DNA of 38,222 nt from a virus (IMGVR_UViG_3300023218_000134:1-38222), one strand, 5' to 3'. Positions 21,449 to 37,403 are shown, counted from the first letter of the stretch. The notes: generated from the sequence alone by a model not told the origin. Numbers and translations: made by a program.

Positions 21449-21715
21449 ATGCCCACGATTTCCGGTTTTCCCAGACCGATCAGCACCGCGATCGTCCCCG
21501 GCGCCCCCGCCGGCAGCCACGACGTGCCCGGCGCGCTTGCCGCGGGCGACACGCTGCTCGCGGTGACGCGGGTCACCGACGCCGATCCCCCGGTCGCCAG
21601 CGACCTCACCGCCGAATTCTCGATCCCCGCGAGCACCGCGAAGACGATCGACAATGCGGCCGGCACCGACACCAGCGGCGACTTCCTGGTCGTCACCTGG
21701 GCCAAAGGAGAATGA
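21449..21715 (+). CDS. Small virion protein (putative head decoration)
   Basis: AGGAG RBS; A/G/T/V-rich and beta-rich; follows the MCP gene. Confidence 0.6.
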   Translation: MPTISGFPRPISTAIVPGAPAGSHDVPGALAAGDTLLAVTRVTDADPPVASDLTAEFSIPASTAKTIDNAAGTDTSGDFLVVTWAKGE

Positions 21716-22233
21716 CGATGAGCAAGAACCAGATCTGCGCCGAACGGCTGTTCCTCACCGAGGACAAGAGCGAGCTGCGCCGCGAGGGCGAGGACGGCGC
21801 GCGCTTCCTCTACGCCAGCGTGGGCGACGAGATCCCGGCCAGCGCCTGCGAGCGCTTCGGCATCGAGGGAGGCAAGCTGAAGGGCGAAGGCAAGGCGAAG
21901 AAGGTGCCTGCCAACAAGGAGCGCCCCGCGCCTGCGAACAAAAGCGCGCCGGTGCCCGAAGGCAAGGTGCCGCAGGATCGCAACCACGCGGGCGATCCGG
22001 GGTCGACCAACCCGGCGATCGATGCCGGCAAGGATCCCGAAGCGGCCATCACCGACATTACCGACATCGCCGGGATCGGACCTGCGACGGCGAAGGCTCT
22101 GGCGGATGCCGGCATTGCCGATGTCGCCACGCTGGCCGCCATCGACCCGGCCAACGCGCCTGCGATCGAAGGTCTCGCTTCCGGCTTCGACTGGGCCGAG
22201 GCCGTTGCTGCGGCGAAAGGCGGTGCGGCATGA
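21712..22233 (+). CDS. Helix-hairpin-helix domain protein in the head-tail region
   Basis: DITDIAGIGPATAKALADAGI HhH motif. Confidence 0.7.
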   Translation: MTMSKNQICAERLFLTEDKSELRREGEDGARFLYASVGDEIPASACERFGIEGGKLKGEGKAKKVPANKERPAPANKSAPVPEGKVPQDRNHAGDPGSTNPAIDAGKDPEAAITDITDIAGIGPATAKALADAGIADVATLAAIDPANAPAIEGLASGFDWAEAVAAAKGGAA

Positions 22234-24828: not shown

Positions 24829-25437
24829 ATGCGACCCTTTGAAATTATCTGCGCCCCGATGACGGTCTACGTCGCCGAAATCGGAACCGTTTTCCCCACG
24901 CTCGACGAACAGCCCGGCCAGGACTGGCAGCTGCTCGGCACGAACGGCGCGCGCTCGATGGACGAAAACGGCGTCACCGTCAGCCATTCGAAGAGCTATT
25001 CGAAGATCCGCAGCGCCGGAGCGACCGGCCCGATCAAGGCCGAGCTCGAGCAGGAGGATCTGATGTTCCGGGTCAACCTGCTCGACCTCAGCTTCGAAGG
25101 CTACCAGTTCGCGCTGAACGGCAACATCATCACCACCACTGCGGCCGCGCAGGGGACGATGGCGCACAAGAAGATCGGCCTCTCGCAGAGCGTCGGCCGA
25201 ACGCGCGAGTTCGCGTTGATCGCGCGCGGTCTCTCGCCCTACGACGAGGCGCTGCCGATACAGTATTGCGTGCCGCGCTGCTACGACAGCGGAAGCCCCG
25301 AGCCGCAATTCCGCAAGGGCGGGACCGGCGCCTCGCTCCAGCTCGAGCTCACCGCGCTCGAAAGCCTGGCCGACGGCGTAAGCGAGCAGGAGCGCTTCGG
25401 CTACATCCTCGCCGGCACCGAAGCGGCACTGCCCTGA
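24829..25437 (+). CDS. Major tail (tube) protein
   Basis: AGGAG RBS; 202 aa; canonical position between the terminator and chaperone/TMP genes; followed by a hairpin. Confidence 0.85.
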   Translation: MRPFEIICAPMTVYVAEIGTVFPTLDEQPGQDWQLLGTNGARSMDENGVTVSHSKSYSKIRSAGATGPIKAELEQEDLMFRVNLLDLSFEGYQFALNGNIITTTAAAQGTMAHKKIGLSQSVGRTREFALIARGLSPYDEALPIQYCVPRCYDSGSPEPQFRKGGTGASLQLELTALESLADGVSEQERFGYILAGTEAALP

Positions 25438-28452: not shown

Positions 28453-29109
28453 ATGATCCTGCCCCTCCCCGAAACGCTGTCCGGGATCGCGCAGGTGAGC
28501 TTCGAGCCGCAGCGGATCGATTACGGCGCGCCCGAGGCGAGCGGTCGGCAGGGCGGCGTCCAGGCGGGCTGGCCGCTGTGGGGCGCGCTCTACCAGATCG
28601 ACCGCTCCGATCCGCAATCGGCCGACGAATGGCGCGCGTTTCTCGCCCGGCTGCGCGGCCGCATTCGCCGGTTCTACGCCTGGGACACGACGCGCCCGCT
28701 GCCGCTCGCCTACGCTTTCGGCCTACCCGCCGGTTTCGACGGCGCGGCGAGCGACTGGAGCCAGTCGATCGACGCCGATGGCGATGCGCAGCTTACGCTC
28801 GAAGGTCTGCCGGCCGGGTTCGAGATCTCGCTGGGCGATTATGTCGGCTTCAAATGGGGCTCCGGGTTCGAGCGCCGGACGATGGCGCGCGCTGTCCTGC
28901 CCGCGACCGCGAACGGCAGCGGGACCGCGGCCGTGACGGTGGAGCCGCCGCTCGATACCGCGCTCGTTCCCACGGACGCGACCGCGCATTTCGACCAGCC
29001 GCGCTGCGTAATGCAGCTCGTGCCCGATAATTCCGAGCTCGGCCCGATCGTCGAGGCCGGCGTGCTGGCCGGCGGGACGATCGCCGCGATTCAGGATCTG
29101 CGGCCGTGA
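28453..29109 (+). CDS. Distal tail protein
   Basis: GGAG RBS; directly after TMP; WRAFLARLRGR motif. Confidence 0.7.
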   Translation: MILPLPETLSGIAQVSFEPQRIDYGAPEASGRQGGVQAGWPLWGALYQIDRSDPQSADEWRAFLARLRGRIRRFYAWDTTRPLPLAYAFGLPAGFDGAASDWSQSIDADGDAQLTLEGLPAGFEISLGDYVGFKWGSGFERRTMARAVLPATANGSGTAAVTVEPPLDTALVPTDATAHFDQPRCVMQLVPDNSELGPIVEAGVLAGGTIAAIQDLRP

Positions 29110-29765: not shown

Positions 29766-30202
29766 GCGGCCCGCAAACCGCCCGGCGCGACATCGCGGCG
29801 CTGCTGGCCCTGATCGAGGCGCGGCGCGACTGGGCGCATGCCTGGACGCGGGGCCGGGACTGCGTGAGCTTCGCCCTGCGCTGTGTCGAGGCGCAGACCG
29901 GCGTGGACCTGCTCGCCGACATTCCGGCGTGGAGAGACCGGCGCGAGGCGCGGCAGGTGACGCACGATCTCGGCGGGCTGACGGCAGCGCTCGACGAGCG
30001 GCTCGATCCGATCGCTCCGGCGCTGGCGCAGCGCGGCGACGTGGCGGCGCTGGCCGAGCCGACCTTCGGTATCCGCCTGATGGTGATCGAGGGCGAGACG
30101 ATGGTCGGTCCCGGCGATCGGGGCCTTGAGCGGCTGCTGCGCTATGCGATGATCCGGAGCTGGTCGATCGCCTCGCTGATCGGGGAGGCGCGCCGTGGGT
30201 AA
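29762..30202 (+). CDS. NlpC/P60-like tail assembly protein (DUF6950-like)
   Basis: W.RGRDCVSFA...QTGVD...LAQRGDV. Confidence 0.75.
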   Translation: MSGPQTARRDIAALLALIEARRDWAHAWTRGRDCVSFALRCVEAQTGVDLLADIPAWRDRREARQVTHDLGGLTAALDERLDPIAPALAQRGDVAALAEPTFGIRLMVIEGETMVGPGDRGLERLLRYAMIRSWSIASLIGEARRG

Positions 30203-32747
30203 GGTGGTCAAGGCCGTCGTCGGAGCGGTGACGTTCGTCGCCGGCGTCGTTACCGGCAATTTCGCGCTCATCGCCACCGGCATCTCGCTGGTCGGCGGCG
30301 CGCTCGCCTCGCCTTCGTCCCCACAGCGTTCCGAGCGCGCGGCCGCCGCCGCGCAGCTTCAGATCGGCGAGACGCCGCGCGGCGCGATCATCGGTCGGGC
30401 CGGCCTCGACGGCAGCCTCGTAGATGCCTTCAATTACGGCGGAGACGACAACACCGACTGGGAAGTGCTCGTGATCGCGCTCGCCGATCACGAATGCGAC
30501 GCGCTCGAGGGCTTTTTCGTCAATGACAGCTACGTCGCGTTCGCCGGGGACGGCGCGGTCGCGGGCTACAACAACCAGCTCGAGGTCTACTGGCGCTCGG
30601 GCACCTGGACCCAGAGCGTGCCCTCGATCCTCACTAGCCACGGCCCGGGCTGGACCGCGAACGATCGCGGGCGCTCGGTCGCCTACGTCGTCGTCGCCTA
30701 CAAGGCCGACGATGCCGAAGCCGAAAGCCCGGTCTGGCCGGGCGGCCGCCCGCAGTTCAAGTGGGTGGTGCGCGGTCTCAAATGCTACCAGGCGCGCAAG
30801 GACAGCAGCATCGGCGGCAGCGGCAGCCATCGCCGCGACGATCCGGCCACCTGGGAGTGGACCGAGAACCCGATCGATCTGCGCTACAACTGGGTTCGCG
30901 GGATTCACGCGGGCGACCGGATCGACGAGCCCGGGCAGCTCCTGATCGGGCGCGGCCTGTCCGCGATCGAGGCCCCGCCCCAGAACGTCTTCGCCAGGGC
31001 CAATCTGTGCGACGAGATCGTCGACGGACAAGCTCGCTACCGCGTCGGCGGGGTTGTCTTCTCCAACGAGGCCTTCATCGATGTCGAGAAGGAATTCGCC
31101 GCCGCCTGCGCAGGCGTGATCGTCCAGCGCGAGGGCAGTGTCGAGATCGATCCGGGCGAACCGCGCGCGGCGGTCGCGCATTTTACCGACGACAACCTGA
31201 TCGTCGGGACGAAGGCCACGTGGTCCGATTTCCTCGGCGAGGAGAATGCAGGCTGGGTCAACACCGTGGTCGCCCGCTTCGTCGATCCCGACCAGCGCTG
31301 GAACGAACGCGGCGCGCCGGTCCGCCGCGAGATCGCCGATATCGTCGAGGATGGCGCCCCGCGCGAGCAGCAGGTTTCGCTCGGCTTCGTCACGAATGGC
31401 GGACAGGCGCAGCGTATCGCCGAGATCACACGGCGGCTCGGGCGGCTCTGGGGGCGCGGGCAGGTAACCCTGCCGCCGCGCTTCGCCGCGATCGAGGAGG
31501 ACGACTGGGTCACCTGGCAGAGCGATCGGCGCTTCGGCGGGCAGACGCTCACCTTCCGGGTCGAGGCCTGGGGATCGGACGAGGGCTGGCGGCACCAGAT
31601 CACGCTGCGGCAGATCTCGGCCAGCGCGTTTTCCGACACCGCGCCGCTCGATGACGGCTCGGTCGCCAGCCAGCAGGGCCGGCCCTCGGGAAGCCTCGCG
31701 CCCGGCGCCGGGGCCTGGAGCCTTGCGGCAGTGCAGCTCGATGGCGGAGACGTGCTGGTGCCCGCGCTCGAGATCACCGGCGCGAACGACAATCGCGCGA
31801 CCGAGCTGATCCGCTTCGAGTACGTCCGGTCCGCCACCGCGCCCGATGCCGCGACCGTCTGGACCGCCATGGGCGCTTCGCGGCCCGACACGACGCGGCG
31901 CGAGATCCAGGTGGCACCGAACGCGACGTTCTACGCCGCCGTTTCCTATGTGATCGACGGTGTGACGCGCGAGCGGCTGGTGCTGGGGCCGGTGACGACG
32001 GGCGGGCTCGCGGGCATCACCTTCGATCCGGTCTCGCCGATCAACATCCAGGCGGACAGCTCCGGCCAGACGACGACGAACCTGCCGATCGACCGCACGA
32101 TCCGCATGCGGCGCGCGGGTCAGCTGGTGACCAGCGGCGTCGCCTTTTCGAGCCCGGTGGTACCGGGCGGCATCACGGCCAATGCAGCGCTTTCGGGCGG
32201 AGCGATCACCATCACGGTCACGCAGGCCGATGCGGCCGGCGTCATCCTGGTGCCGGTCACCTTCGCGGGTCAGACCTACCTGCGCGAGATCGTGGTCAAT
32301 CGCAGCATCGCCAGCGGCCAGAGCGGCGGCGGCGCGGGCGCGTCCGGGTTCACCGACACGGCGCTCGCCAACGTCTCGAGCACTAATTTCGCCCAGGTGA
32401 GCGATGTCGGCGCGATCGTCGCGGCGAGCGGTTCGGGCGAGCTGCGTTTCGAATGCCTCGGCCAGTACGATGGCGCAGGCGCGATGGAGATTGTCGCGCG
32501 CTATTCCGACGATGGCGGGGCGACCTGGACCGACGCGGGCGCTTCGGCGACCGGAACGCAATCGACGGGCGGTTCGGGCGGCCAGCAACAGCCGACATTC
32601 GGCGAAACCGGCTTCGTCTCTCTCGACCGGACGGTCACCGGACTCACCGCCGGTGCCGATTACCAGGTGGCGCTGTTCGCCCGTCGCACCAGCGGCAGCG
32701 GCACGCTTAGCTGGTTCCAGCCCAACTTCACCGTAAGCCAACCCTGA
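30195..32747 (+). CDS. Tail tip / central fibre (host specificity J-like) protein
   Basis: VRGLKCY...WEWTENP...ANLCDE...NTVVARFVDP, followed by beta-sandwich C-terminal domains. Confidence 0.85.
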   Translation: MGKVVKAVVGAVTFVAGVVTGNFALIATGISLVGGALASPSSPQRSERAAAAAQLQIGETPRGAIIGRAGLDGSLVDAFNYGGDDNTDWEVLVIALADHECDALEGFFVNDSYVAFAGDGAVAGYNNQLEVYWRSGTWTQSVPSILTSHGPGWTANDRGRSVAYVVVAYKADDAEAESPVWPGGRPQFKWVVRGLKCYQARKDSSIGGSGSHRRDDPATWEWTENPIDLRYNWVRGIHAGDRIDEPGQLLIGRGLSAIEAPPQNVFARANLCDEIVDGQARYRVGGVVFSNEAFIDVEKEFAAACAGVIVQREGSVEIDPGEPRAAVAHFTDDNLIVGTKATWSDFLGEENAGWVNTVVARFVDPDQRWNERGAPVRREIADIVEDGAPREQQVSLGFVTNGGQAQRIAEITRRLGRLWGRGQVTLPPRFAAIEEDDWVTWQSDRRFGGQTLTFRVEAWGSDEGWRHQITLRQISASAFSDTAPLDDGSVASQQGRPSGSLAPGAGAWSLAAVQLDGGDVLVPALEITGANDNRATELIRFEYVRSATAPDAATVWTAMGASRPDTTRREIQVAPNATFYAAVSYVIDGVTRERLVLGPVTTGGLAGITFDPVSPINIQADSSGQTTTNLPIDRTIRMRRAGQLVTSGVAFSSPVVPGGITANAALSGGAITITVTQADAAGVILVPVTFAGQTYLREIVVNRSIASGQSGGGAGASGFTDTALANVSSTNFAQVSDVGAIVAASGSGELRFECLGQYDGAGAMEIVARYSDDGGATWTDAGASATGTQSTGGSGGQQQPTFGETGFVSLDRTVTGLTAGADYQVALFARRTSGSGTLSWFQPNFTVSQP

Positions 32748-32758
32748 GGAGCGCCTGA

Positions 32759-35700
32759 GTGTCGCCTGACGAGATCATCACCGGCCCCTACACCGTCTGG
32801 ATCGCGCCGGTCGGAACCGCCTTCCCGGAGCCAGGCGTCGAGCCCGGATCGGCGTGGACGAGGCTCGGCACGAACGGAGCGCGCAGCTACGCGGACGGCG
32901 GTGTTTCGGTGCAGCATCTGCGCCGCTTCGACCAGGCACAGCCGGCCGGCTCGCCCGCGCCGACGATGGCGTGGATCGCTGGCGAGCAAGCGCGCATTTC
33001 GCTGGAGCTGATGGACTTGACGCTCGAGCAGTATGCGCACGCTCTGGGCGGGAATGCGGTGACCCGCCGGCCGGGGCCGGACGGTGCCGGCTCGCTACTC
33101 TCGATCGGGCTCAGTCTTCGACCGCGCGGCCAGAGCGCGATGGCTCTGCTGGTGCGCGGGCAATCGCCCTATGACGAGGCGCGCGAGGCGCAATACGAAG
33201 TCGCCCGCTGCATCGAGGTCGGCAGTCCGCGCCCTGTCTTCCGCCGCGGTCGGCCGGCGACGCTGGCGCTGGAATTCACCGCGCTGGTCGATCCGGCGGC
33301 GAAGAACGCGGAGGAGCGCTTCGGCCGGCTCGTCGCCGACGAGGCAACCGAGCTGCTCTTCCCGAGCGGGAGTTATGACGGAACGCCCTCCAGCGGTTTC
33401 GCTAGCGAGCCGGTCGATCCGCAGCGGACCACGGCAAAACCTGCGGCGCGCCTGCTCGTCCCGCATTCGCTTCCTTTCACCGACAATCTCCTCGTCGGCA
33501 TCGAGGCCTACGCGAAGGGCGGTATCGCGCGCGTCATCGCCCATTACGAAGGCAACAGCGCTGAACTCACCGAGCGGTCGATCGAGACGCCGGGCGGGCA
33601 TCCTGCGGAACACGGCGGCTCGGCGGTCGAACCGCCGCCGGTGAGAGCGTGGTGGACGCGCCTTGCGCATAGCGGGGTCAATGGGACCGGACGCGTCTTT
33701 TTCGAAGTGGTCCCGAACGATCCGACGATGCAGAGCCGCATCATCGGCCCGTTCTCCTTCCATCCTTTCGAAGGATACGACGCCGATCTCGAAATCGCTC
33801 CATCGCAAACCGAGGTGGCGGGCAGCCGATACCAGTCCATCGGCGCGGCGATCGAATATTGCCGTACGAACAGCCGTGATTTCCCGAAAATCACCGTCGT
33901 TGAGGCGGGTGATTACGACCTCGTCGCGCCGCAAAGCTATTCTCCGAAAGGCCGCGTGCGGATCGAGGCGACCGCTCCCGTGCGCTTCTACCGCCCACCC
34001 AATGCGTCAAGTCCGGCAATCCGTCCTCGATACCCCTCCCATTTCGTCGGTAAAAACATCACGATCGATCTCGCCGGGGCGAGTGAGTTCTACATCGAGG
34101 TCGGTATTCCCGAACAGGTGGCGCTCGCCAACGTCTTCGATGGGGTGACGATCACCGACAGCAACGGGCGCGGCTCGCTGATCGAGCGCGATATTCGCGC
34201 GGCGGGCCATACGGTTCGCGCGCCATATTTCATGCTGGATTGCGCCGTAACCGATCTGCCGAACCCCGCGACCAATGCGGAGTTGGTACGATGCGGATCG
34301 TTCGACCGCTGTTTTGCCGACCTGTTCAGTTCTTCGAAGTGCGTCGTCGGCCCGACCGTGCGAGATCTGGATAGCAGCGTCTATCGCATCGGCTTCGACG
34401 CCCTCAACATCACCGGCCCCGCCAACGGCACCGTCGAAAGCAGCGGGACGGTTTCGCAAAAGACATTCACATTCCGCGAAGGCGGCACCGAGGTCGGCGC
34501 TATCACGCTTGAGAAGGTCGATTTTGTCAGCGACCTTGCCGACGCGGTGAACGCTCTGGTTGGGTGGAATGCCACGGTTCTCAACAACGGTATCGTCCCG
34601 ACCGTGCTAAGCCTCGCGACCGGGAAGCCGGCTGACCAGTTTGCAGCGCAGGACGTGTCCTCCGGCCTGACGCTCAAGGCCCGGTTCGATTATCACAGCG
34701 ACATCTGGCAGTCGCAGGCGGCACACGAAAACGTCATTGTGGACGGATTTTTGGCTTATGATTGCCGCGCGCAGATGTTCCTTATCTCTCGCGGCTTCGC
34801 GCTGAAAGACGCGGCATTCGTCAACAATCTCGCGTTCCAGAACCCGGCCGCAAGCCCGATCTACGATAACGCGGTGACCCCCAGTTACCTCGAACAGAAT
34901 GCGGGCAGTGGTCACATCTTTTTCGATCACAACACGATGCCCGATCAGCGCCTGCTGTTCGAAGCGCTCGACGATTATTCGAGCGTATCCAACAATGTCC
35001 TGCGCCGCCTTGACTGGTTCTCGGGCAAGGAAACCGACGGCAAGACGATCGATGGCAACCACCTGTCCGAAGCCGGCACGGCACCCCAATTCGCGACGGG
35101 CACCACGATCGGCGGAACCACCGCCACGCTGACGCAGGATTATGCAGCGGAAGATCTGCGCGCTGCCGGCGACCTTCTGCTTACTCTACGCGCGCCGACC
35201 GTTCCGTTTGATCGCGGTGGTGCCCGTCGCGGCGCGACCGATGTGGTCGGAGCGCTGTCGAATTCCGCCGCTTCACCGGAAGTTGGCACGGTGCCGGTTT
35301 ATGCCGTCGCGCCCTTGATCAGCGGGGCTGCGATCACCGGGACACCGCAGGACGATGAAGTCCTGACGTTCAACGCGACGATTTCCGGCACTCCGCCGCT
35401 GACCATCGAATATCGCTGGGGCGATGATGATGGCGATTATTCGGGCGAGGAAAGCCAATCGTTGCTTCTCGATGCCGCCGCTATGACGCTCGTTCACAAC
35501 GATGTGATTGAAGGCGAATTGACCGTGGCGAATGCGCAAGGGACGGCGAGCGCCACCGCCACGCGCACTTTCGTCGATCCGGCGCAACTCGACCCGCAAC
35601 TGGCAGCTTTGCTGAACGAAATATCGGGCATTGCGCAAGGACTGGTGGCGGACCTTACCGAAAGCACGGACGATGGCACGCTGACGGTCGCCAACCAGGC

Positions 35701-36214
35701 GGACGGGACCTCCGACCTCGTGCAAGGAACTGCCGGGAACAAGCCGAGCATGGACGCCTCCGGTGCCATGTTCGATGGCGACGACTTCCTACGTTACGAC
35801 ATCACCAACAACCGGACATGGACCGTCTATATCCGGTTTGCGAAGGACGCCGCGCATAGCGGTCCCGGCAAGCTGTTCACCTCGCAGGGTTCGTTCTCGC
35901 CGCTGGTCTATCACGACGGCTCGACCGCCGCGCAATCCGCATCAACCACCCTTGATCCGCATCTATCCGGCGGGACGTCAATCGCAGACTGCAACGCCCT
36001 TCATGACGGGATCGACGACGCCGCCGCGCACGTCATCAAAATCACAGGATGGGGAACCGCTTCGTGGACGATGTTCCGCTTCGGCGGGGCAGGCAATCCG
36101 TCCGATGGCATCAGGGGCGCGATCGACAAGATCGTGGCCTTCCCGGAAGACGGGCTTTCCGCGCAGAAGCTGTCCGACCTTCGCGCCGCTGCAGAAGCGT
36201 GGATGGCAGCATGA
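32759..36214 (+). CDS. Tail-tube-paralog domain fused to large beta-rich (beta-helix/Ig/lectin-like) receptor-binding or depolymerase domains
   Basis: GAGGAG RBS + GTG. Residues 1-~195 align end-to-end with the major tail protein; the remainder is beta-rich and lower in GC. Confidence 0.8.
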   Translation: MSPDEIITGPYTVWIAPVGTAFPEPGVEPGSAWTRLGTNGARSYADGGVSVQHLRRFDQAQPAGSPAPTMAWIAGEQARISLELMDLTLEQYAHALGGNAVTRRPGPDGAGSLLSIGLSLRPRGQSAMALLVRGQSPYDEAREAQYEVARCIEVGSPRPVFRRGRPATLALEFTALVDPAAKNAEERFGRLVADEATELLFPSGSYDGTPSSGFASEPVDPQRTTAKPAARLLVPHSLPFTDNLLVGIEAYAKGGIARVIAHYEGNSAELTERSIETPGGHPAEHGGSAVEPPPVRAWWTRLAHSGVNGTGRVFFEVVPNDPTMQSRIIGPFSFHPFEGYDADLEIAPSQTEVAGSRYQSIGAAIEYCRTNSRDFPKITVVEAGDYDLVAPQSYSPKGRVRIEATAPVRFYRPPNASSPAIRPRYPSHFVGKNITIDLAGASEFYIEVGIPEQVALANVFDGVTITDSNGRGSLIERDIRAAGHTVRAPYFMLDCAVTDLPNPATNAELVRCGSFDRCFADLFSSSKCVVGPTVRDLDSSVYRIGFDALNITGPANGTVESSGTVSQKTFTFREGGTEVGAITLEKVDFVSDLADAVNALVGWNATVLNNGIVPTVLSLATGKPADQFAAQDVSSGLTLKARFDYHSDIWQSQAAHENVIVDGFLAYDCRAQMFLISRGFALKDAAFVNNLAFQNPAASPIYDNAVTPSYLEQNAGSGHIFFDHNTMPDQRLLFEALDDYSSVSNNVLRRLDWFSGKETDGKTIDGNHLSEAGTAPQFATGTTIGGTTATLTQDYAAEDLRAAGDLLLTLRAPTVPFDRGGARRGATDVVGALSNSAASPEVGTVPVYAVAPLISGAAITGTPQDDEVLTFNATISGTPPLTIEYRWGDDDGDYSGEESQSLLLDAAAMTLVHNDVIEGELTVANAQGTASATATRTFVDPAQLDPQLAALLNEISGIAQGLVADLTESTDDGTLTVANQADGTSDLVQGTAGNKPSMDASGAMFDGDDFLRYDITNNRTWTVYIRFAKDAAHSGPGKLFTSQGSFSPLVYHDGSTAAQSASTTLDPHLSGGTSIADCNALHDGIDDAAAHVIKITGWGTASWTMFRFGGAGNPSDGIRGAIDKIVAFPEDGLSAQKLSDLRAAAEAWMAA

Positions 36215-36852
36215 CCTGGCCGCTTCTCATCCCGCTCGCCCTCGCGATCGCCCTCGCTGTCATGTTCGCCTGGCGGCGACGCGCCGAGCCTGATGGTTGG
36301 AGCCTCGGTCCGATCATCAAGGGCCGCAACCGTTCGAGGGGGCGGCTCACGCTCGGGCGCATCCTCGGAGAGGAAGGCCTCTGGTCGCTCGATGGCGGCG
36401 AGCCGCACTACGTCACTCGCTCGGCCTACGATCTCTCCTTAGGGGCCCGCATCCGCTTGCGCTATCGCGTGGAAGGCACGATGCGTCCGGTCGAGAAGCC
36501 GTCCGCCGATCCGCTACTGACGCTCTATTTCCAGCGCGAGGGCGACGACTGGTCGGCGCGCGGGCCGAAGCGGCATTATCGCTGGTATTCGAAAGCGCGC
36601 CTGCCGCTCGCGCCGGGCGATTACGAAGCCTTCGTCGACGTCGAACCCCGCGACTGGTTCTCCGTGCTCGGGGAGCCGGGCGAGGACAACCCCCGCATCT
36701 TCGAGCGCGCGGTCCGCGAAGCCGTACGCGTCGGCGTGGTCTTGGGGTGGCAGGGCCGCGCCGGGCACGGCGTCACGCTCGACGGCCGCTTTACCATGCT
36801 CCAATTCGCGATCGAACCCGCCCTCAACCCCGACCAGGAGACCGTCCGATGA
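36211..36852 (+). CDS. Membrane-anchored hypothetical protein, Trp-rich beta-sandwich-like
   Basis: ATGA coupling, N-terminal TM MTWPLLIPLALAIALAVMFAW and LYFQREGDDWS...YRWY. Confidence 0.7.
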   Translation: MTWPLLIPLALAIALAVMFAWRRRAEPDGWSLGPIIKGRNRSRGRLTLGRILGEEGLWSLDGGEPHYVTRSAYDLSLGARIRLRYRVEGTMRPVEKPSADPLLTLYFQREGDDWSARGPKRHYRWYSKARLPLAPGDYEAFVDVEPRDWFSVLGEPGEDNPRIFERAVREAVRVGVVLGWQGRAGHGVTLDGRFTMLQFAIEPALNPDQETVR

Positions 36853-37403
36853 GCCGCCGCAAGACCGAAACCGTCCACGTTCCTTCCGATGCCGCCGAAG
36901 CGGCTGAGATGCTCGCCGAGTATGTCGATCTCGATCGCCAGCGCATGATCGAACGGCTCGCGGCCGAAACCGCGATCGACCGGGTCAAGGCCCAGCGCGA
37001 CGAGGCCCTGCGCGAGATCGAGGCGGAGGCGAAGCCGCTCTGCGCCGGAATTAAGTCCTGGTGGGAGAGCGGCGGCTGCGACGAGGTGGCGAAGGGCAAG
37101 CGCTCGGCCGAGCTCGCCAACGCCAAGATCGGCATCCGCCTCGGCATGCCGCAGGTGAAGTTCGTGCGGAAGGTCAAGGCGGGCGACGTCGTCGACTGGC
37201 TGCGCGGCCTGCGCTGGACTAAGGCGAGCACCTTCCTGCGCACCCGGATCACGCTCGACAAGGAAGCGGTGATCAAGGCGATCCGCACCGACCCGAAGAC
37301 GGCCGAGACCTTCGCCGAACATCTGAGCGTCGAGCAGGCCGAGGAGTTCTTCATCGACACCGGCCTGGATGAGGACGCGCTGAGGAAAGAGATTGCGGGA
37401 TGA
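36849..37403 (+). CDS. gam: Mu Gam-like host-nuclease inhibitor
   Basis: AGGAG RBS; a coiled-coil N-half, then KRSAELANAKIGIRLGMP, FLRTRITLDKEAV and VEQAEEFFID. Confidence 0.85.
   Translation: MSRRKTETVHVPSDAAEAAEMLAEYVDLDRQRMIERLAAETAIDRVKAQRDEALREIEAEAKPLCAGIKSWWESGGCDEVAKGKRSAELANAKIGIRLGMPQVKFVRKVKAGDVVDWLRGLRWTKASTFLRTRITLDKEAVIKAIRTDPKTAETFAEHLSVEQAEEFFIDTGLDEDALRKEIAG

Follow-up and report, generated by a model that had tools for sequence, protein, structure and literature searches.

The window analysed here, 38,222 bases long, represents a whole virus record with an estimated completeness of 96%. Its genes include those for an HK97-type capsid and for Mu Gam, as well as a siphophage tail module. 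The tail genes follow the order terminator, tube, chaperone-position gene, tape measure, Dit, tail protein, DUF6950 and J-like tip. A transposase and other Mu-like early genes were named by eye from the window translations. The same gene order is found in the cultured Sinorhizobium phage Aussie, which has a single major tail gene and in which the tip gene is followed by a hypothetical protein and a tail fibre. Homologues of the tube protein (TTP1) in three cultured phages carry the annotation major tail protein. In the window, a second tube-like domain (TTP2) lies at the start of a long gene directly behind the tip gene:

24829..25437, + strand: TTP1, major tail tube protein, 202 aa, located between the terminator and the chaperone/tape measure genes and supported by fold search
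28453..29109, + strand: distal tail protein (Dit; phrog_1302, E 6e-29)
30195..32747, + strand: J-like tail tip protein, 850 aa (PF13550 and phrog_5616), of the short type by length comparison with relatives
32759..33346, + strand: TTP2, tail-tube paralog and N-terminal anchor domain (aa 1-196), 42% identical to TTP1, in a clade with 23 other TTP2 rows, with a predicted lateral interface
32918..32983, + strand: degenerate stacking-hairpin tip of TTP2 (aa 54-75), without R61 and K70 of TTP1
33440..33766, + strand: beta-sandwich domain before the helix (aa 228-336; AF2 strands), conserved in 8/8 rows with window-type cargo
33776..35149, + strand: right-handed parallel beta-helix with an inserted domain (aa 340-797; fold search), with the candidate active site D-x-H-x-D
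35315..35569, + strand: Ig-like spacer domain (aa 853-937; strands from the model, Ig label from pattern), common to other TTP2 cargos
35636..36214, + strand: C-terminal beta-rich domain in the model (aa 960-1151), lectin/LamG-like by pattern

The open reading frame at 32759-36214 (+) encodes 1151 aa from a GTG start with GAGGAG upstream, and begins 11 bases past the stop of the J-like tip gene. Its N-terminal ~195 aa had been described in a first-pass annotation as a full-length paralog of the major tail protein, and this was borne out by BLASTP against the product of 24829-25437 (86 of 204 residues identical, 42%, E 8e-44), in which TTP1 was covered end to end. The motifs quoted there are all present (7/7 TTP1/TTP2 pairs and 4/4 cargo motifs), with the pairs in register at offsets of 0 to 2 residues. 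Exactly two matches to TTP1 exist in the window. The TTP2 gene is located 7.3 kb downstream of the TTP1 gene, has a start and a ribosome site of its own and shares 56% DNA identity with it. In line with the further remark that no other obvious side-fibre gene is present, nothing else fibre-like was found between J and Gam; the sole other gene in this interval (36211-36852) has a hydrophobic segment at its start and no Pfam or PHROG match. Single-sequence searches detected neither longer TTP1 homologues nor loci with the N-domain in genomes or viral contigs, gave no match among PDB sequences, and gave none to Pfam or PHROGs for TTP1 and the 1151-aa protein; profiles were needed.

Within the flank, a second tube copy was present in 12 of the 118 related loci found with the TTP1 profile, always directly after J; many of the other loci end too early or are distant. 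Two prophages (L053, L123) carry TTP2 after J but lack TTP1 and its neighbouring genes there, and are deletion-damaged. Searching 1.84 billion representatives (50% identity) with a TTP2 profile yielded 660 matches. Among the best 150 of these are 13 proteins, including the window's, that begin with this domain and measure 805-1151 aa (four of the 13, from the window, L085, L053 and L018, were already in the query alignment). Because 13 such proteins bear the TTP2 N-domain, the fusion is not an artefact; an assembly error or chance read-through is ruled out by its recurrence in 13 clusters (50% identity representatives). In a sample of 401 genomes from the family of G001, any match was seen in five and TTP2 in one, and the 50,697 phage records searched include three with a match, each at a single place. 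The TTP2 system is therefore narrow but recurrent, and the duplicated tube gene fused to cargo is real and conserved. Short forms of TTP2 (200-261 aa) exist as well, two of them in G276. In L125 and L146 the short TTP2 precedes a separate 584-aa gene with glycine-rich repeats and a 937-aa SASA esterase-domain gene; the next gene starts at the stop of TTP2, and no sign of a frameshift joining the two was seen by eye.

A quick maximum-likelihood search with 71 rows, which were labelled by profile score and included 11 P-rows without genomic context, placed 24 TTP2 rows on one side of a branch (SH-aLRT 98), apart from the TTP1 of their own phages. In this quick tree the grouping of TTP2 rows with each other, and not with their own TTP1, rules out a recent duplication within the window's phage. 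On the TTP1 side, phages with and without TTP2 are intermixed, and the TTP2 module is therefore optional, being acquired or lost jointly with the J end. The dN/dS values (0.05-0.31 in the six closest TTP2 pairs, 0.29-0.54 in four distant pairs) indicate purifying selection on TTP2 and rule out a dead duplicate.

Relatives combining the same N-domain with swapped cargos, as envisaged in the first-pass annotation, were found. Cargos without a BLAST match to each other are joined to near-identical N-domains in the pairs P0110/P0111 (0.027 changes per column between the N-domains), P0115/P0118 and L085/L086, so TTP2 behaves as an anchor for swappable modules, in the manner of fibre and tailspike anchor domains. 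The cargos form unrelated groups, namely the window's type (L121, L090, P0127), a second one that may be beta-helical, judging by sequence (P0111, P0113, P0114, P0115), GDSL esterases by Pfam (P0109, P0112) and an SGNH-like group defined by motif only (P0107, P0110, P0117, L122), the remaining ones being singletons. The core of the window's cargo also occurs without TTP2, after a short N-terminal peptide, in four proteins (P0103-P0106, 32-36% identity), so TTP2 replaces another leader. A derivation of the cargo from the C-terminus of long J was rejected, since TTP2 cargos and long-J extensions gave no BLAST match in the loci compared.

In an AF2 model of aa 199-1151 (mean pLDDT 71.5, pTM 0.56, alignment of 10 rows), the core at aa 340-797 resembles the alginate epimerase/lyase 8ja4 (VIA; Z 17.2, rmsd 3.4, 281 residues aligned), RbmB (Z 16.9) and tailspikes of Klebsiella and Acinetobacter phages (Z 15-16). 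Model and fold search thereby support the beta-helix that had been suggested as possible, and the predicted core has the right-handed parallel beta-helix that characterizes tailspike depolymerases; such likeness to polysaccharide lyases and tailspikes is a shared fold, which alone implies no function. Foldseek on the cargo agreed weakly with a beta-helix (best E 2e-4), an Atlas search had a best value of 0.89, which is a lead only, and a search of the cargo against the 50,697 phage records gave no match. The D-x-H-x-D motif at aa 644-648 is retained in 8/8 rows with window-type cargo and is a candidate active site that may have a catalytic role. As for the Ig-like segment and LamG-like end proposed earlier, both came out as beta-rich domains in the model, and neither obtained a fold match in a search that barely covered the ends. 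The Ig-like spacer has BLAST matches in L121, L122, L085, P0107 and P0110. Relatives of the C-terminal domain, which we take to be LamG-like and for which aa 960-1151 gave no Pfam match, are found in L121 (two copies), L122, L085 and P0112. The G+C content is 0.71 in the N-domain and 0.58-0.67 in the cargo segments, and at third positions it falls from 0.84 in the N-domain to 0.60-0.79 across the cargo, compared to 0.84-0.89 for seven other genes; this drop fits a cargo acquired later than its anchor.

The AF2 model of TTP1 (pLDDT 84.5) had phage tail and tail-tube entries as its top Foldseek matches (best E 1.7e-7), including mycobacteriophage Douge, SPR, JBD30, lambda and other tails; DSR2 entries also occur among the matches. 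With PF25681 (Phage_TTP_17), TTP1 scored E 0.16 and TTP2 gave no match, while the cut-off was passed by 4/4 distant homologues tested. Taken together with the 42% identity of TTP2, the model and Foldseek results assign the family a tail-tube fold, and TTP2 is predicted to form the tail-tube beta-sandwich with a helix and a long hairpin. To characterize the contact between both proteins, two TTP1 and one TTP2 domain were modelled as a complex. The TTP1-TTP2 score was 0.67 and the best of three controls scored 0.00; of 157 solved complexes, 116 reach the mark applied, as do 2 of 215 mismatched pairs; these figures are only roughly applicable here, and the pass may stem from likeness to solved tube rings. 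The TTP1 alignment used had 51 rows, one of which is the window's TTP2. Runs agreed in at least 92% of contacts, with a partner pLDDT of at least 78, and the contacts join edge strands 49-53 with 157-161, as between neighbours within a ring; the confident interface involves one of TTP2's two side faces only. As a descriptive contrast, the TTP1-TTP2 identity at the 28 best-contact positions is 0.60, compared to 0.43 outside interface and hairpin, and conservation within TTP2 over the whole predicted faces (0.58 and 0.47) is not in excess of that elsewhere (0.54). The N-domain is thus predicted to bind TTP1 via the in-ring interface, in line with the earlier proposal of a subunit that forms rings with the major tail protein.

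In the available parts of PMC8718954 and PMC13252515, the stacking loop is described as the main ring-to-ring contact, which points to the ring below or Dit. Tube growth in lambda, SPP1 and T5 requires this loop, tube proteins without it stop at rings, and the C-terminal domains of tube proteins face outward (PMC8718954, available text). Conserved residues of this loop have been lost in TTP2. Identity in the hairpin tip (aa 54-75) is 0.32 within TTP2, the lowest of 13 regions, whereas the 47 TTP1 rows together reach 0.50 and the closest 22 of them 0.69, and the TTP2 loop shares an identity of 0.20 with the TTP1 set of the same phages. R61 and K70 are present in 94-96% of TTP1 rows and in 8% and 0% of TTP2 rows, respectively; A63-G64 are largely retained, and G67 and A71 are mostly lost. 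The hairpin length is unchanged to within one residue, and the N-arm, D86 and E90 are retained. The drop in identity is larger in the hairpin than in other columns (p 0.005, with columns that are not independent and a region picked after viewing the alignment), and the eight highest sliding windows for this drop all begin at 56-65. A degenerate stacking hairpin makes a fully equivalent tube subunit unlikely, and mixed rings or a special ring therefore fit better. With this refinement, the co-polymerising tube subunit suggested in the first-pass annotation is supported by prediction: two findings named there as refuting it, an N-domain without the tail-tube fold or one unable to form rings with the major tail protein, were not borne out.

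The length of J was compared across phages that share at least 55% J identity with the window. In 12 phages with TTP2 it ranged from 613 to 877 aa, and in 12 lacking TTP2 from 801 to 1726 aa (p 6e-5, kinship ignored), a contrast that is confounded by linkage and kinship and in which the ranges overlap (L042 without TTP2, 801 aa; the window and L090 with TTP2, 850 and 877 aa). L003, L004, L005 and L007 were collapsed into one row, the length of L088 is a lower bound, and duplicates as well as L009, L010, L012, L025, L027 and L172 (J broken or cut) were left out. The absence of TTP2 is secure in L168, L169, L170 and L174 from the J-to-Gam stretch and in G001 and G163 from a search of the genome; in the remaining phages it refers to the flank only. 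Among nine proteins tested for co-variation with TTP2 presence, 17 columns were found in J, two in Dit (p 0.013 against shuffles) and one notable column in TTP1 (position 115), with nothing clear in the six others; linkage is the best reading of this pattern. We infer that these phages follow one of two designs, having either a long central fibre or a short tip that is combined with a TTP2 cargo.

Our best reading, to which we assign a probability of roughly 55%, is that TTP2 sits beside TTP1 in a small number of tube rings, probably close to the tip, and that its cargo is displayed outside the tail. The duplicated tail-tube domain, with its beta-helix cargo attached, would join TTP1 side by side in these rings and be incorporated into virions at low copy, and the TTP1 neighbours would supply the ring-to-ring stacking that the altered hairpin of TTP2 no longer fully gives. 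The cargo may bind or cut host surface polysaccharide and could take over part of the receptor-binding role held by long J in relatives, and recombination at the junction behind TTP2 would change the cargo. Retained side contacts and a relaxed stacking loop would suit a minor subunit held by TTP1 neighbours; the loss of R61 and K70 could equally mean that TTP2 forms a ring of its own or enters no tube at all.

A TTP2 ring on Dit is the main rival to mixed rings. It would lie between Dit and the first TTP1 ring and place six cargos around the tip, by analogy to T5 p140, which in the available part of PMC10038345 is a duplicated TTP that forms a ring bearing the fibre collar. The location of the gene in the tip module is consistent with such a ring, as are a changed loop toward the ring below alongside retained N-arm, D86 and E90, the short TTP2 forms that adjoin a separate fibre- or esterase-like gene, and the two Dit columns that follow TTP2 presence. 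However, the loop appears relaxed and not re-specialised, given its low identity within TTP2, relatives without TTP2 retain similar Dit and TTP1, and the Dit signal, seen in one of nine proteins, may be linkage; we therefore regard a separate ring as rather unlikely. Mixed rings with TTP1 also agree better with the predicted contacts than a tube domain repurposed as an anchor on the outside of tail or tip, which would leave unexplained why residues at the best predicted in-ring contacts stayed TTP1-like and why the hairpin length was kept within one residue. Loss of the stacking residues and the faster evolution of TTP2 relative to TTP1 would be expected from such an outside anchor, and the conserved motifs could serve the fold alone, but overall it seems improbable. 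Least probable is a soluble, non-virion enzyme that would serve release from matrix and whose tube domain would be either a decoy against tube-sensing defences or a brake on the growing tube. Defence proteins such as DSR2 recognise tube proteins, and DSR2 entries matched the TTP1 model. A brake would agree with the arrest of loopless tube proteins at rings (PMC8718954, available text). Yet the gene occupies the slot of the tail fibre in the cultured relative Aussie, its cargos are tailspike-like modules with Ig-like spacers, a short J accompanies TTP2, and a decoy would need no 950-aa cargo.

As a minority tube subunit with an extra C-terminal domain, TTP2 would resemble SPP1 gp17.1* and the lactococcal MTP-TpeX, as far as these are described in the available texts. 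The ratio of gp17.1 to gp17.1* in SPP1 is 3:1 (PMC8718954, in the accessible part), and TpeX of the lactococcal 936 group contains a carbohydrate-binding module that binds host cells (PMC6669499, likewise). Both arise from a single gene by programmed frameshift, with an identical tube domain and about 100-350 extra residues according to these partial sources, whereas TTP2 is a separate, diverged gene (42%) in the fibre slot whose stacking loop is altered and whose enzyme-like cargo, 600-1300 residues long, is swapped among phages; it is thus no frameshift extension. T5 p140 (and T4 gp54) shares with TTP2 the origin as a tube-gene duplicate in the tip module, and the collar that anchors the T5 side fibres surrounds the p140 ring (available part of PMC10038345). 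In that text p140 is 9% identical to pb6, undecorated and limited to T5-like phages; TTP2, in contrast, is 42% identical to TTP1, mostly fused to cargo and absent from close relatives. An undecorated ring with fibres held by a collar protein does not describe the window's protein, in which the cargo is fused, and the short forms of relatives come closer. TTP2 would thus work like frameshift-extended tube subunits and p140, yet it lacks what defines either class. Two related tube genes are also known from Gordonia cluster DJ phages (43% identity; PMC12859696, available text), where the pair is one gene apart and differs by 51 C-terminal residues, with no large cargo and no location in the fibre slot. 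Tube-fold tip ring proteins bearing sugar-binding modules, as in evolved Dits and the Hcp-like rings of ceduoviruses with CBMs, are a further parallel, and mixed rings are predicted for the ceduoviruses c2 and bIL67 (PMC12474359, in the part accessible); those proteins are the Dit, whereas the window's phage has an ordinary Dit besides TTP2. With swapped-depolymerase tailspikes, TTP2 has in common a conserved anchor, exchanged cargo and a beta-helix fold, but its anchor is a tail-tube domain. In such tailspikes the N-terminal anchor is conserved and the C-terminal depolymerase exchanged.

A separate tube paralog fused to a large exchanged cargo was not found reported in the literature covered, which was partial; no such fusion appears in the accessible parts of PMC3556154, PMC13252515, PMC13595954, PMC13243795 and PMC12486242 (Citromicrobium prophages). 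Each part has precedent (SPP1 gp17.1*, lactococcal TpeX, T5 p140), and it is the combination that was not found. A broader proposal, which we place slightly below even odds, is that TTP2 is a new class of receptor-binding-protein anchor in the tube wall, which gave up stacking as a minor or terminal subunit and became a socket for swapped tailspike-sized enzymes that replace the long central fibre as main host-range determinant. The known attachment sites of side fibres and tailspikes are the baseplate, collar, neck or Dit. In the papers covered here, tube decoration takes the form of Ig domains or frameshift extensions, and a separate tube subunit with exchangeable enzymes of 60-140 kDa would add another, unusual route of attachment. 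TTP2 would also offer a natural experiment in which ring formation is uncoupled from ring stacking, and it marks a set of unannotated candidate polysaccharide-active modules against the surfaces of Erythrobacter-like bacteria. The closest tube proteins among named records are mostly from Erythrobacter, Porphyrobacter and other Sphingomonadales.

Two deletion-bearing prophages and one genome with a pair of related prophages were found among the related loci:

L123 / L146, 830-3100, deletion-bearing prophage
L053 / L149, 5776-5933, deletion-bearing prophage
L127; G276:C1:3043391-3066399, pair of related prophages that share one genome and lie tail to tail

One deletion-bearing prophage lacks the neck, terminator and major tail tube protein (TTP1) genes, and in the other the distal tail protein (Dit) gene directly follows the terminase gene. 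TTP2, the TTP1 paralog, is intact in both. Each of the tail-to-tail prophages carries its own TTP1 and its own short TTP2.

More distant proteins of the tube family (P0129, P0157, P0212 and P0235) bear small additions at the N- or C-terminus, identified by Pfam as TIG, cadherin-like and Fn3-like in three of the four. Such ordinary decorations of tube proteins in this family are of separate origin. The stand-alone forms of the beta-helix cargo (P0103-P0106) start with a short Gly/Phe/Leu-rich peptide, a leader that may represent an alternative virion anchor.

Further genes concern the region 3' of the TTP2 fusion, the tail tip and the head:

36211-36852, +, 213-aa gene of the window, between the TTP2 fusion and Gam
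36849-37403, +, feature of the window
L109 15640-19455, long J-like tail tip protein of a related locus
21712-22233, +, 173-aa gene of the window, 3' of the capsid gene

The 213-aa product has an N-terminal hydrophobic segment followed by basic residues, and may serve as an accessory or exclusion protein anchored in the membrane. It matched nothing in Pfam or PHROG, and no homologue of its gene was detected among the related loci compared. Inspected by eye, the C-terminal end of the long J protein looks like a Hint (intein-like) domain. The 173-aa gene encodes a helix-hairpin-helix domain (PF14520, E 6e-7), which is unusual content for the head-to-neck region.
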